From Candidatus Omnitrophota bacterium (GTDB lineage Bacteria; Omnitrophota; Gorgyraeia; JAFGHF01), in contig JAZDHS010000020.1 in assembly GCA_043805735.1 (NCBI GenBank), positions 9,750 to 73,749 of the forward strand: a stretch of DNA of 64,000 nt, in the 5' to 3' direction. A program made the position numbers. This document shows positions 57,001 to 64,000 of this stretch, in pieces (positions within the stretch are counted from its first letter, which is position 1; each line of letters starts with the position of its first letter).

Positions 57001-60000
57001 TTGGCGGCAGCATCTGCAGCCGGGTGCTTTCGGAAATACTCAACGATAAAACTAATGTTGCCGTTGCCGATTTACCTAAAGTCGAGCTGCACTACCGGCG
57101 TTTAGGGGTGTTGGGCGAAGAGACACTTTTCCCCCGGATTCTGATGAAAAACAAAAAACTACAGCAAGCAGAGGGTAACAGTTTTTGTGTGCCCTGCGAT
57201 GAAGACCGGGTACTGATTGCCGTTGACCACCGGATCAACCGGCACTTTTGTATCCGGCTCTGTGATATTTATAATACGCTTACGCTGATCAATAAGAAGA
57301 ATTTTGACTGGGATTACTTATGGAAGATAGCCGAGGTCCGGCAGATTAAAGCGGCGGCGCGATTCTATCTTGACTATATCAAGCGTATTGCCGCAACGGT
57401 CGGCCCCCAACAAGCCATTCCGGCGCTGCCCTTTAAAAGAACCTTTTTTAGATTTCCCTTGTTGGCGATTATTCCCAGAAGCTATGCCCAAAAATGGTGG
57501 GGCTTTGTAAAATCGTTTAATCTCGAGGCGGCCTTACGAATGAGTTTAACCGTGCCGCTTTTGTGTTTAGCCGGTGTGCAAAAATTGATTGGCCGAAAGT
57601 CGAGCTGGTAAAACTAAAAGATGGAAAACGCAGGCCTAAACGCATTAAAGACCGTAGCCAGAGGCGCGCTGATCGTCCTAGCGGGTTCAGGAGTGGGCCG
57701 TCTGCTCAATTACTCCTATAAATTAATTGTCGCCCGGTTGGGGCCGGAATCATTCGGGATACTTTCTTTGTGCGTGACGCTTTTAGGTATCGCCTCGACT
57801 TTAGCCTTTTTGGGGCTGCCCGAAGGAGTAAAACGGTATATCTCTTTTTACCAGGGCAAGAATGACAGTCAAAAACTGCGCGCAACGATACAATCGAGCC
57901 TGGTTCTCTCGACAATCGCCGCCTGCCTGCTGGCGGGTGTGATTTTCTTGGCTGCCGAGAGTATCGCGAAATTGTTTTTCCATAATGCCACTTCGGCAGC
58001 GTATGTCTATTTTGTGGCCGCAATTTTGCCGTTTTATGTCGTGAATTGGATCTGTATTAAATGTTTTGCCGGTTTCAAGAACCTGAAGTTCCGTGTCTTT
58101 GTCTATGATATTGGCGAGAACGCCTTTAAGATTGCCTTCACGGTGGTTTTGCTGATGTTGGGTTTCAAGTTATGGAGCGCGCTCTTAGGCTATGGCCTGG
58201 CGATAATCTGCTGTTCCTTGCTTTCTTTATATCTTCTGGAGTTTAAGGTCTTCTCGGTGCTGCGCGGGCCTTACCGGGGCCAGGTGATGCATAATGAGCT
58301 GCTGCAGTTTTCGCTGCCGCTTTTGTTTTCCGGCCTGATGATTTTTGTGCTTTCCTGGACCGACACCTTGATGCTGGGGTACTTCAGCTCCATGACTAAT
58401 GTCGGGCTTTACTCCGCGGCCTTATTAATCAGTTCGCTGGTCTTTATCGGCACGGATTTATTGACCCCGATTTATTTGCCAGTGGTTACGGAATTGTACG
58501 CGCGAAAAGAAAAAGCGCAAATAACCAGTGTCTTTGAATCGGTAAATAAATGGGTGTTTGCTATCTGTCTGCCGCTGGCCTTTCTCACTTTTATCTTTGC
58601 GCGCCAGCTGCTGGCGATCTTTTTTCCGCAGGAATTTGGCGTTGCCTATGGGGCGCTGGTTTTATTAACCGCGGGAAGATTGGTCTATGCCTTCTCCTTT
58701 ACGAGCCTGCATATGCTCAATATGATCGAAAGGACGCGCATTATATTTGTGACCAGCGCCATCGCCACTGCGCTCAATGTGGTCTTAAATTATCTTTTTA
58801 TCCCACGCTATGGTATCGTCGGGGCGGCCGCGGCCACCGCCTTTTCTCTCACCCTGCAGGCGCTGCTATTGATCGGGTTAAACGTTAAGTATCTGCGCCT
58901 GCATGTCTTTAGCCCGGCCACGGCCAAGGTGGCCTTGGCGGCATTTCTGCCGGCGCTGGCTCTTTATTGGCTACAGTATTACTGCGCGCGAACGCTGGTG
59001 GTATTCTTTAGTTTATCGGCGCTGTATATGCTGATTTATGCGGCGTTACTATATTTCCTCAAGGCCTACGATGACAAAGATAACGCTATTGTAAAGATGA
59101 TCATACAGAGAAGGGCTTAACAAACACAATGTGCGGTATTTGCGGTTTTGTCGGTATTAATGATGTTGAGCTGCTCAAGAGAATGACCGACCTGTTGTCC
59201 CATCGCGGTCCGGACGAAGGGGGGATCTTGTTTAAAAATAACCTTTGGAAGTGGCAGGACCAGAATTGGCGCAAGGCCGAACAGTTGCCTTTAAAAAGGG
59301 AAGCCACTATCGGTTTAGGGCACCGCCGCCTAAGCATTATTGATTTAACCGGCGGCTGGCAGCCGATTAGCAATGAAGATCGCACGCTTTGGCTTGTCTC
59401 CAACGGCGAAATATATAATTACCGGCAACTGCGTGATGAGCTCATCGCCGGAGGGCACCGTTTCTATACCCACTCGGATGCCGAGGTGGTTGTGCACCTC
59501 TATGAGGAATATGGGGAAGATTTTGCGCGTTTCTTGAATGGCATGTTTGCCTTGGCGCTCTGGGACAGTAACTCCCAGAAACTATTATTGGCCCGGGACC
59601 GGATCGGTATTCGCCAAATGTATTATACATTGGAAGCGGGCAAAATTGCCTTTGCCTCGGAGATGAAATCGATCCTGGAGCTTCCCGGCTTGCCAAAAGA
59701 TATCGACGAACAGGCGCTGGATGAGTTTTTGACTTTTCGTTATGTCCCCGGCCCCCGGACGATTATGAGCCGGATCAAGAAGTTGCCCCCGGCTTCGATA
59801 TTAGTATATCAGGAAGGCCAAATCAGCATTTCCCGCTATTGGCAAATTGATTCTGAACAATACCGGCAGTATAATAACGCGGCCTTAATCGAACAATTTT
59901 ACGAGCTGCTGCAGGATTCGGTGAAGCTGCAGATGGTCAGTGATGTTGCTGTTGGTATTTATTTGAGCGGAGGCCTGGATTCCAGCGCTATTTTAGGCCT

Positions 60001-63000: not shown

Positions 63001-64000
63001 TGCCTTTCTTTCTCTTTTGACCAAAATTGCTTCCGGCTATTGGCATGTCAGTGATTCGCAATCGGGATATACGGCGATCAACCTGGCCAGTTTAAGGAAG
63101 CTCGATCTCGAGAGTGTCTACAAAAGATACGGTTTTCCCAATGACCTGCTGGTGAAGCTCAATGTCAGCAATTGCCGAGTGCTCGATGTGCCGGTGAAAC
63201 CGGTCTACAACATCGGCGAACAATCAAAAATCCGGCTCTGGAAGGTGATCCCTACTCTCTCGGTGCTTTTAATCCGGGATTTCTTTTGGCGGCTGTTTCA
63301 AAAATATGTCATTCGCGATTTTCATCCGTTGATCTTCTTCTATCTTTTGGGAATCGTGCTCTTACCTTTAGGCTCAGGCCTAGGGCTCGTTATCCTCTAC
63401 ACCAATACTCCGTTGGGCGGAGCAGCGCAGGCGCTGCCGATCGGCTGGATCATCCTCTGCGCCCTGTTAGTGATCAGCGGGATGCAGTCGCTATTTTTTG
63501 CGATGTGGTTTGATATGGATTATAACCGTCATTTGGCAATAACCGATGAACGAAAATAACGTAGCCGAAAAAGAGTATCTCGCAAAAATATTTTCCCGTT
63601 GGCTTAATATCTCTGAGCAAGAGTTAGAAGCGGAGATGAAAGGCATTGATTCTGCCAGGGCAATCGAGCGTCTTGAGGCTCCGCGGGTTTTACCAATAGT
63701 GAAATTACTGCGCAAGGTCCTGCAGGATGTACTTGTGGTGGCTGGCCAGAAGAGGCAGAAATGGATTAGCGATATCTTGCAGAGGATGCGCCGGCCCAAG
63801 TTAAGCAAAATGAATAATATCGCAGGCCTGTTTTTTGTCGAGATACGTAAGGACATCCAGCAAAACCTCAATCGCCGGGGAATAGTTCCGCGGACCGCGC
63901 CAGGCGCCATCTGTATCACACACGACATTGATTGGGTTGACTGCTATAACTTTACCGATGAGCTTGCTGAACTAGAAGCATCTTACCGCATCAATGCCAC

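Follow-up and report, generated by a model that had tools for sequence, protein, structure and literature searches.

The gene region studied here raises the question whether two similar sets of sugar-tailoring genes within one polysaccharide locus arose by duplication, and what kind of product they might provide for. The region is a stretch of 64,000 nt (in the following referred to as the window) from a metagenome-assembled genome (MAG) of a Candidatus Omnitrophota bacterium (GCA_043805735.1; contig JAZDHS010000020.1, positions 9,750-73,749, forward strand). It contains two gene sets, cassette A and cassette B, each of which encodes an AsnB-type amidotransferase (AsnB-A, AsnB-B), a B12-binding radical S-adenosylmethionine enzyme (rSAM-A, rSAM-B), and a glycosyltransferase of family 2 (GT2-A, GT2-B). 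An initial interpretation of the DNA, in the following called the sequence-only reading, regarded these genes as clear paralogs, i.e., as a duplicated trio that leads to two related but distinct modified sugars. The data presented here suggest instead that cassettes A and B are ancient lineages, which were either separately inherited or separately acquired and are not the products of a local duplication. Furthermore, we consider it probable (at roughly 60%) that cassette B is the front part of a conserved module for making, tailoring, flipping, and transferring a polyprenyl-phosphate-linked modified sugar, and thus part of a three-component surface-glycan decoration system consisting of a GtrB/ArnC-type synthase, a MOP flippase, and a glycosyltransferase of the GT-C type.

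The basic layout of the two cassettes was as it had been read. Open reading frames (ORFs) for AsnB-B, rSAM-B, and GT2-B start at 59129, 61113, and 62579 on the + strand with the domains proposed for them, and Pfam detected the same architectures at 42703, 40200, and 38275 in cassette A. Both GT2 proteins carry C-terminal hydrophobic helices, the internal order is reversed (GT2, rSAM, AsnB in cassette A; AsnB, rSAM, GT2 in cassette B), and cassette B lies directly behind a second Wzx-like flippase gene (57621), whose stop codon is located 8 nt before the start of AsnB-B. The genes are tightly packed, with junctions of -8 to +17 nt in cassette B and -4 to +9 nt in cassette A. The proposed end of the unit at 63559 had to be revised, since a further ORF, starting at 63546, overlaps the GT2-B stop codon by 14 nt and continues past the end of the window. 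Its product is 32% identical over 151 aa (E = 2e-27) to a NodB-like gene product (L001:12430-13518) from an orthologous locus of another Omnitrophota genome (GCA_016939375.1; locus L001), and therefore the window cuts the cassette B module.

Homology within each of the A/B pairs is real: BLASTP yielded 37% identity (E = 2e-139) for the AsnB proteins, 42% (E = 2e-85) for the GT2 proteins, and 26% over 371 aa (E = 5e-32, 115 bits) for the rSAM proteins. However, the two members of a pair are not more similar to one another than to the rest of their family, and each gene has far closer relatives outside this genome, so that the in-genome partner is neither the nearest relative nor among the nearest. 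The phmmer scores of the A proteins versus the B proteins (AsnB 404, GT2 256, rSAM 106 bits) compare with outside scores for the cassette B genes of 418 bits for the 150th AsnB representative, 425 bits for the 120th GT2 match, and 316 bits for the 120th rSAM match. For AsnB, an exhaustive HMMER search against 1.84 billion cluster representatives gave 27,305 matches at E <= 1e-30. The best 150 of these were compared, all of which reached at least 418 bits; 139 of the 150 out-scored AsnB-A against AsnB-B (BLAST score), and 70 were also nearer to AsnB-A than AsnB-B is. The top 119 outside matches of GT2-B are 58-75% identical to it, versus 42% for GT2-A. For rSAM-B, the nearest outside relatives show 71, 65, 51, 49, and 48% identity, followed by hundreds at 35-40%; for rSAM-A, at least 120 such relatives lie at 43-57%. 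Among the matches listed, all outside relatives of rSAM-B (119/119) are 35-71% identical to rSAM-B and 22-31% to rSAM-A, and likewise all those of rSAM-A (119/119) are 43-57% identical to rSAM-A and 23-31% to rSAM-B, so that the two match sets are mutually exclusive. Even the moenomycin-type rSAM from Streptomyces is nearer to rSAM-A (163 bits) than rSAM-B is (115 bits). A recent duplication was ruled out at the DNA level, where sensitive blastn found just three motif-sized matches of 66-189 nt with 69-74% identity between the cassettes.

The GT2 clades follow the rSAM clades. GT2-B groups with the proteins from L001 and from two further orthologous loci, L004 and L006, at 52-74% identity (74% to the GT2 from L001), and GT2-A groups with an Elusimicrobiota protein at 61%, while identities between the A and B clades amount to 41-46%. 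The Elusimicrobiota GT2 gene adjoins an rSAM-A orthologue of 54% identity, and therefore the split between A and B predates, or is independent of, the genome studied here. The nearest relative of AsnB-A is located in the same Elusimicrobiota locus (45%), that of AsnB-B in L001 (66%). A comparison with related genomes, as the sequence-only reading had proposed, indeed found relatives of cassette B in L001, L003, L004, and L006. The L001 genome shares cassette B at 65-74% identity and yielded no rSAM-A match, with MAG incompleteness as a caveat, while the best NCBI-sourced match of rSAM-A is 54% identical and comes from Elusimicrobiota; this is a further hint that A and B are independent of each other. 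A segmental duplication in this genome, by which the GT2/rSAM/AsnB trio would have been copied and the copies would have diverged toward two related sugars, could account for the occurrence of three identical domain architectures twice within one locus, for the full-length alignments of the AsnB and GT2 pairs, and for the family-specific invariant residues common to both GT2 proteins, including a DFHPL motif. Nevertheless, such an event is very unlikely. Every member has many relatives in other phyla that are nearer than its partner in the window, the rSAM proteins are 26% identical with reciprocally exclusive match sets, and DNA-level similarity is limited to motifs. Moreover, GT2-A and AsnB-A pair with the Elusimicrobiota locus but GT2-B and AsnB-B with L001, the closest relative carrying cassette B lacks an rSAM-A match, and gene order as well as accessory genes differ between the cassettes. 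In practical terms, the recurrence of a domain trio within a polysaccharide locus does not have to reflect a duplication.

Both GT2 proteins match PF00535 (80.6 and 83.7 bits), and in an alignment of 30 GT2 sequences the residues D38-D39 and D96/D100 are invariant or nearly so, in agreement with the GT-A catalytic domain of polyprenyl-phosphate glycosyltransferases (PPGTs). The AF2 model of GT2-B (pLDDT 88.3) shows three C-terminal helices (220-246, 251-276, and 288-315), with hydrophobic segments predicted at 244-311. When the model was compared with the PDB by Foldseek, ranks 1-17 were occupied by ArnC, the DPMS from P. furiosus, and GtrB, aligned over the whole chain (E = 5e-15 to 1e-10, 316-336 aligned columns, TM 0.47-0.61), so that C-terminal helices and whole-chain fold both correspond to those of PPGTs. 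At the sequence level, GT2-B is only about 19% identical to the solved structures, and its sole PDB sequence matches are ArnC. Its best NCBIfam families (AglJ, PpgS, Dol-P-hexose transferase, and ArnC) match below cutoff; the ArnC equivalog (NF007986, cutoff 529 bits) matches GT2-B with 33.5 and GT2-A with 32.5 bits and covers the N-terminal third only. The GT2-B family is large, with more than 8000 homologues (each of the 8000 candidates that were scored proved significant); in the best 120 matches, identity is 58% or higher and about 98% of the length is aligned. Because the model matches ArnC, DPMS, and GtrB, GT2-B is classified as a putative polyprenyl-phosphate sugar synthase, a member of the GtrB/ArnC/DPMS class that is apparently not an orthologue of any characterized enzyme.

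Both AsnB proteins score above the cutoff (267 bits) of TIGR01536, the model for glutamine-hydrolysing AsnB, with 475 bits for AsnB-B and 480 bits for AsnB-A. The best NCBIfam family of both is TIGR03108, to which WbpS belongs (eps_aminotran_1), with 484.7 bits for AsnB-B and 556.6 bits for AsnB-A; its equivalog cutoff of 816.9 bits is reached by neither of them. The Cys2 glutaminase site (MCGICG) and the PP-loop (SGGLDS in AsnB-B, SGGIDS in AsnB-A) are intact. Both are therefore best described as predicted glutamine-dependent amidotransferases of the AsnB family that resemble WbpS/eps_aminotran_1. A reading as lasso or other ribosomally synthesized and post-translationally modified peptide (RiPP) cyclase was ruled out, because the glutaminase site is intact and TIGR01536 matches above cutoff. 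Relative to AsnB-A, AsnB-B has a 22-residue insertion in the glutaminase domain (residues ~33-55), which is unusual for the family because many AsnB relatives from the databases align only from about residue 60 on.

The two rSAM proteins contain the CxxxCxxC motif (CPRRCSFC in rSAM-B, CPFKCVFC in rSAM-A) next to the B12-binding and Radical_SAM domains and are thus putative cobalamin-dependent (class B) radical SAM enzymes. No curated NCBIfam subfamily cutoff (BchE, HpnJ, PhpK, HpnR, GenK/MoeK5-like, and others) is reached by either of them; the best scores, 154 bits for rSAM-B and 162 bits for rSAM-A, were both obtained with BchE (cutoff 481). rSAM-B is a member of a rare clade, which rests on 4 outside loci; a metagenome scan detected no member of this narrow clade, the best match being 41% identical. 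The broad rSAM-B family (<=41% identity) includes DPANN archaea and Patescibacteria. With 34-40% identity, it is represented in Aenigmatarchaeota, Undinarchaeota, Nanoarchaeota, and Altiarchaeota among the DPANN archaea as well as in Patescibacteria (loci L025, L036, L042, L063, and L074). These DPANN and Patescibacteria loci have no AsnB or PPGT-type GT2 neighbor, and therefore the role of the rSAM-B family must differ there.

Synteny was observed for cassette B as well. In L001, genes for a kinase-like protein, a Tmk-like protein, NTP_transf_5, Wzx, AsnB, B12-rSAM, and GT2 occur in the same order as in the window (54669-63559). The GT2 gene is followed by Polysacc_deac_1 (weak match), Formyl_trans_N, a gene for a 310-aa protein, a 65-aa ORF, a second B12-rSAM gene, PMT_2, GFO/IDH/MocA, a short-chain dehydrogenase/reductase (SDR), and DegT. 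The best match of the formyltransferase is the ArnA formyltransferase domain (105 bits versus a cutoff of 777), and the second B12-rSAM (15467-16918) is nearest to HpnJ, which it matches over its full length with 257 bits, below the cutoff of 578. The GFO protein resembles UDP-GlcNAc 3-dehydrogenase and the SDR resembles LegB. L004 and L006 (46% rSAM identity) contain the L001 gene families in shuffled order, and L003 holds a subset of them. The protein of about 310 aa (L001 14323-15453; L004 6977-8066) is present in L001, L004, L006, and, weakly, in L003. Its gene is followed by an ORF of 59-65 aa inside the cassette B module, and neither product has a predicted membrane segment; the 310-aa and 65-aa proteins from L001 match no Pfam or NCBIfam family. 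The HpnJ-like rSAM gene of L001 lies directly before the GT-C gene.

Co-occurrence was counted in loci of at least 12 kb anchored on the rSAM gene, with AsnB counted within 10 kb. In the rSAM-B clade, AsnB is present in all 4 loci and a PPGT-type GT2 in 3 of them, versus 1/64 and 0/64, respectively, in the broad rSAM-B family (<=41% identity). In the rSAM-A clade, AsnB occurs in 5/5 and a PPGT-type GT2 in 2/5 loci. In all five rSAM-A-clade loci a GT2 gene lies at most two genes upstream of the anchoring rSAM gene, in four of them immediately upstream and often overlapping, and PMT_2 or YfhO, both GT-C, is found close by in four. Sets related to cassette A were identified in L085, L086, L087, L168, and L169. 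L085 from Elusimicrobiota combines PMT_2 genes, AsnB, GFO, a hexapeptide acetyltransferase, GT2, and B12-rSAM, which is the context of cassette A, and L169 from Omnitrophota has GT2, AsnB, a methyltransferase, a carbamoyltransferase, a 323-aa rSAM, and B12-rSAM. A locus anchored on a 62%-identical relative of GT2-B (L170) carries Wzx-like, AsnB, GT2, rSAM, and B12-rSAM genes. On 21 kb of L169 (GCA_040753015.1), two AsnB, five B12-rSAM, two small rSAM, two carbamoyltransferase, four GT2, and one PMT_2 gene lie on one strand, including one B12-rSAM and one GT2 gene cut by the end of the locus, which shows that several tailoring sets can pile up in one locus. The GT2/rSAM/AsnB association is thus real but clade-specific, and a MOP flippase and a GT-C enzyme belong to it. 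The suggestion that GT2, B12-rSAM, and AsnB form the conserved unit holds insofar as they recur together in the rSAM-A and rSAM-B clades, but the recurring unit is larger than the trio. Judged from the orthologous loci, the cassette B unit would also take in the NodB-like deacetylase, the formyltransferase, the 310-aa protein, and the HpnJ-like B12-rSAM.

The flippase encoded next to cassette B has 12 hydrophobic segments and is 24% identical to the first Wzx protein of the window (25716). It is syntenic directly upstream of AsnB in L001 and the related locus L002 (597 bits) and also occurs in L004 (284 bits). It may export a polyprenyl-phosphate-sugar donor rather than a repeat unit. Synthase and MOP flippase genes are adjacent in the window; a GT-C partner is represented by three PMT_2 genes for cassette A and, for cassette B, was seen in L001, L004, and L006 only. 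The three PMT_2 proteins have 8-10 hydrophobic segments each, the same PMT_2 and GFO set stands beside the rSAM-A orthologue in L085, and they are likely the users of a lipid-linked donor. The PMT_2 genes (32713-37239) have overlapping ends and are located directly upstream of the GFO oxidoreductase gene and cassette A. BLASTP detected no pairwise similarity among the three proteins; such unlike sequences suggest three different acceptor or donor specificities.

From the observed gene content, enzyme classes, and synteny we infer the following substrates, order of steps, and acceptor. Nucleotide-sugar enzymes of the locus would supply a uronic and/or amino sugar, which GT2-B, according to its enzyme class as deduced from sequence and fold, would load onto polyprenyl phosphate at the inner membrane face. 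AsnB would then turn the carboxyl group into a carboxamide, as expected from its WbpS-like family, and the B12-rSAM might C-methylate or rearrange the sugar. Further steps could be added by the formyltransferase, the NodB-type de-N-acylase, and the HpnJ-like second B12-rSAM, the genes of which were seen in the orthologous loci. Finally, the adjoining MOP flippase would export the donor, and a GT-C enzyme would attach the sugar to an envelope glycan. According to this proposal, the product of either cassette would be a uronic and/or amino sugar that is bound to polyprenyl phosphate, amidated, and C-modified before a GT-C enzyme transfers it, and cassette A, with the three GT-C genes beside it, would represent a second, independently descended module of like kind that makes a different sugar. 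In this respect, two distinct sugars are likely, as had been suggested, but they would not have come about by duplication of the trio.

Several points weigh against this assignment. The GT-C, deacetylase, and formyltransferase genes of cassette B were seen in the orthologous loci only, as the window ends at 64000. Independent rSAM-B-clade loci are few (4), with none from the metagenome scan, and the loci were picked by similarity to window genes, which favors similar contexts. The GT2 partner is not fixed, since the adjoining GT2 in 3 of the 5 rSAM-A-clade loci is of a different, shorter type. Except for the generic AsnB model TIGR01536, no curated equivalog cutoff is reached by any of the proteins, and the functions named here are predicted ones. 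Moreover, the substrates of AsnB and rSAM could be nucleotide sugars or the completed polymer and not a lipid-linked sugar. Action on nucleotide sugars is also assumed in an explanation by two ordinary Wzx/Wzy-type loci side by side, in which the second Wzx would flip a second repeat unit, AsnB and rSAM would tailor nucleotide sugars in the cytoplasm, and the GT2 would serve an unrelated side-branch or be one more transferase. It would fit with two MOP flippases that are only 24% identical, with the many Leloir GT4 and nucleotide-sugar genes of the locus, and with the absence of any known lipid carrier requirement in amidation of the WbpS type (PMC7468200). We consider it unlikely, though worth keeping in mind, given that the GT2 agrees in fold and membrane helices with polyprenyl-phosphate sugar synthases and not with repeat-unit GT2s, that flippase, AsnB, rSAM, and GT2 genes are contiguous and syntenic across genomes in a block ending in GT-C, and that the reading frames of GT2 and rSAM often overlap at their start/stop codons.

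It might also be that cassette B and its downstream genes constitute a true Arn-type lipid A pathway with a formylated and then deformylated amino sugar, in which AsnB and the rSAMs are passengers. L001 does possess an ArnC-like GT2, a NodB-type deacetylase, a formyltransferase nearest to the ArnA domain, a PMT_2 protein (ArnT fold family), an SDR, and a DegT aminotransferase, and the LptD-like gene of the window speaks for a diderm envelope. This is distinctly improbable, however, as the Arn equivalog models either stay far under their cutoffs or give no match (ArnC 33.5 versus 529, ArnA 105 versus 777 bits), the SDR is LegB-like and not an ArnA-type decarboxylase, and three lineages have retained AsnB and the two B12-rSAMs within the block, so that these are not passengers. 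In L001, the NodB-like and PMT_2 genes gave no match to the ArnD or ArnT models, and membership in an Arn operon was ruled out with all equivalog models far below cutoff. Least probable of all is that the AsnB and rSAM genes serve a pathway for a peptide (RiPP or lasso type) or for lipid modification and adjoin the glycan genes by location only: the matches of AsnB to lasso cyclase models (213 bits versus a cutoff of 525) and of the B12-rSAMs to RiPP and lipid enzymes are all sub-threshold, and despite the kinase-like and NTP_transf_5 genes upstream, neither a precursor peptide nor a protease was observed, all conserved neighbors are glycan enzymes, and AsnB has the intact Cys2 glutaminase site as well as a full-length, above-cutoff match to glutamine-hydrolysing AsnB.

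Taking the three-component decoration reading further, we tentatively suggest, as a rather speculative extension, that there are cross-phylum decoration modules (Omnitrophota, Elusimicrobiota, Nitrospirota, Thermodesulfobacteriota) in which the polyprenyl-phosphate-linked donor itself is the substrate of cobalamin rSAM chemistry and AsnB amidation before GT-C transfer, with C-methylation and, via the HpnJ-like enzyme, possibly ring contraction. Among the papers found by a literature search on these terms, none links B12-rSAM enzymes to GT-C or undecaprenyl-phosphate (Und-P) sugar pathways. If this extension were true, cell envelopes would bear moenuronamide-like or carbasugar-like residues, and it would be the first case in primary envelope biogenesis in which an rSAM enzyme tailors a glycosyl donor while it is bound to a lipid. 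If the three-component reading is right, anaerobic uncultured phyla would decorate their envelopes by a chemistry of which antibiotics (moenomycin, gentamicin) and hopanoids are so far the only known examples, with cobalamin rSAM C-methylation or rearrangement and amidation wired into the GtrB/ArnC plus GT-C scheme. The known range of bacterial surface sugars would thereby grow, large unannotated B12-rSAM clades would receive candidate functions, and compact testable gene sets (GT2, rSAM, AsnB, and GT-C) would become available for glycoengineering.

TABLE 1. Position of the two cassettes and of associated genes within the window.
Feature	Position	Strand	Basis
MOP-superfamily (Wzx/MATE-like) flippase no. 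2	57621..59120	+	Pfam Polysacc_synt, Polysacc_synt_3, MatE
AsnB-B, 663 aa	59129..61120	+	Pfam GATase_7/GATase_6 and Asn_synthase
rSAM-B, 482 aa	61113..62561	+	Pfam B12-binding (PF02310) and Radical_SAM (PF04055)
GT2-B, 326 aa	62579..63559	+	Pfam Glycos_transf_2 (PF00535)
NodB-like gene, 5' part, running off the window end	63546..64000	+	Homology to L001:12430-13518
Three genes: kinase-like with GNAT, P-loop Tmk-like, NTP_transf_5	54669..57611	+	Pfam; synteny with L001
Cassette A as a whole	38275..44601	+	Pfam
GT2-A	from 38275	+	Glycos_transf_2
Small radical SAM, 323 aa	39219-40190	+	Pfam Radical_SAM and Fer4_12
rSAM-A (B12-rSAM)	from 40200	+	B12-binding and Radical_SAM
Trm112-like and class I methyltransferase	from 41633	+	Pfam
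AsnB-A	from 42703	+	GATase_7 and Asn_synthase
Three tandem GT-C (PMT_2) and GFO/IDH/MocA oxidoreductase, directly upstream of cassette A	32713..38257	+	Pfam
Two UDP-sugar 6-dehydrogenases (9666, 13367), SDR epimerases/dehydratases, carbamoyltransferase (16795)	9666..18612	+	Pfam

The cassettes are embedded in one envelope-polysaccharide locus on the + strand, which extends from about 9.6 kb to the end of the window (>54 kb). According to Pfam, it encodes UDP-sugar dehydrogenases, many SDR epimerases/dehydratases, a carbamoyltransferase, and a Wbp-like set (UDP-sugar dehydrogenase, DegT, GFO/IDH/MocA, hexapeptide acetyltransferase, and 2-epimerase), and it also contains several GT4 genes and many methyltransferase genes. 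For the genes at 9666..18612 a role in precursor supply is possible. The carbamoyltransferase is of the NodU/CmcH type and is followed by a small SxtJ-like protein (16795-19028); carbamoyltransferase genes are likewise found within the sets of L169 that resemble cassette A and within a moe-like locus of Streptomyces (L171). At the start of the locus (4680-9643), two GGDEF diguanylate cyclase genes, one of them with GAF, are located directly upstream of the LptD-like outer-membrane protein gene (weak match), which indicates the diderm envelope. From the position of the cyclase genes, the polysaccharide locus may be under c-di-GMP control. Between GFO/DegT and an acetyltransferase gene (22217-23920), the locus encodes a protein of 567 aa that matches no Pfam family and has 8 or more hydrophobic segments; it could be the Wzy polymerase, a ligase, or another GT-C of the locus. 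In the gene trio upstream of the second flippase, the kinase-like protein has a protein-kinase/RIO-like domain, to which GNAT is fused in the window copy only. The trio is syntenic in L001 (4065-6503) and L002 and may activate or phosphorylate a substituent. The small radical SAM enzyme of cassette A had been labeled a SPASM enzyme, but Pfam detected no SPASM domain in it at E <= 1e-3. Its best NCBIfam family is PTO1314, below cutoff, and it contains 11 cysteines. Small radical SAM genes of the related loci L001 and L004 do have SPASM matches.

In three-component systems, a lipid-phosphate sugar synthase forms the donor, which is possibly modified in the cytoplasm, exported by a MATE/MOP flippase, and used by a GT-C enzyme for transfer to the finished glycan; a MATE flippase and the cytoplasmic modification of an Und-P-sugar have been described (Kelly et al., 2024; PMC11127046). 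As in the Gtr systems of Shigella and Salmonella and in pentofuranose systems, GT2-B has the GtrB/ArnC/DPMS fold with C-terminal membrane helices, a MOP/MATE-type flippase gene adjoins, and PMT_2 is found next to cassette A and next to the cassette B orthologues. Unlike the systems known so far, which carry at most an epimerase for tailoring, the modules described here have AsnB, one to three cobalamin rSAMs, methyltransferases, and, for cassette B, a formyltransferase and a deacetylase embedded in them, and the window GT2 is not a GtrB or ArnC orthologue. Relatives of the Arn pathway (PmrHFIJKLM) are LgmABC from Bordetella, FlmF2/NaxD/FlmK from Francisella, and PpgS/Rv3779 from mycobacteria. 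The module presumably follows the logic of Arn, in which an amino sugar protected by a formyl or acetyl group is loaded onto polyprenyl phosphate by a GT2, de-N-acylated by a NodB-type enzyme, and passed on by a GT-C enzyme, with the L001 formyltransferase nearest to the ArnA N-domain and ArnC as the only PDB sequence match of the GT2. It differs by the lack of an ArnA-type decarboxylase and of ArnE/F and by the addition of AsnB and B12-rSAM, and its target need not be lipid A. The system would thus work like Gtr/Arn-type decoration, yet it fails every Arn equivalog test.

The HpnI/HpnK/HpnJ system, which leads from hopanoid glucosamine to the cyclitol ether, likewise uses a GT2, a deacetylase, and a cobalamin rSAM for a lipid-linked amino sugar, and the second rSAM of L001 is nearest to HpnJ. 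The deacetylase family of that system differs from that of the cassette B module; furthermore, hopanoid genes are lacking here, and the lipid is presumably polyprenyl phosphate. HpnJ has been proposed to contract the sugar ring in hopanoid cyclitol ether synthesis (PMC9204698). With regard to amidation, WbpS, WbqG, and PGN_1234 are eps_aminotran_1 family members that convert uronic acids to uronamides (PMC7468200). The window AsnB proteins resemble them in their best family (TIGR03108), in the intact Cys2 and PP-loop, and in the Wbp-like gene set of the locus, but with 485 and 557 bits they stay below the 817-bit cutoff.

With moenomycin, the window shares an AsnB and B12-rSAM (plus carbamoyltransferase) gene set, and rSAM-A is nearer to the moe-type rSAM than rSAM-B is. 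MoeE5, MoeF5, MoeK5, and MoeM5 reportedly have roles in the tailoring of moenomycin unit F in Streptomyces. This unit, moenuronamide, is a 3-O-carbamoyl-4-C-methyl-glucuronamide (PMC13584161). MoeK5 is a cobalamin-rSAM C-methylase (PMC9204698) and among the genes required for the earliest lipid-linked monosaccharide intermediate (PMC3814723), and MoeH5 is an amidotransferase acting on the uronic carboxyl group (PMC8778134). In moenomycin itself, a lipid-phosphate-linked uronic acid is amidated, C-methylated by a cobalamin rSAM, and carbamoylated. A moe-like cluster has been reported for the S. clavuligerus megaplasmid (PMC2997539), and L171, which lies on this megaplasmid and contains SDR, AsnB, an AsnB-like fragment, B12-rSAM, and carbamoyltransferase genes in this order, is, to judge from its gene content, probably that cluster; the encoded proteins are 34% (SDR), 32% (AsnB), 29% (B12-rSAM), and 25% (carbamoyltransferase) identical to those of the window, i.e., similarity to the moenomycin genes is at the family level only. 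Unlike the putative products of the window, moenomycin is a secondary metabolite built on a phosphoglycerate-isoprenoid lipid by other glycosyltransferase families and does not follow the GT-C/flippase logic. Nevertheless, the predicted tailoring by AsnB and B12-rSAM is, by analogy, chemically reminiscent of the moenuronamide of moenomycin.

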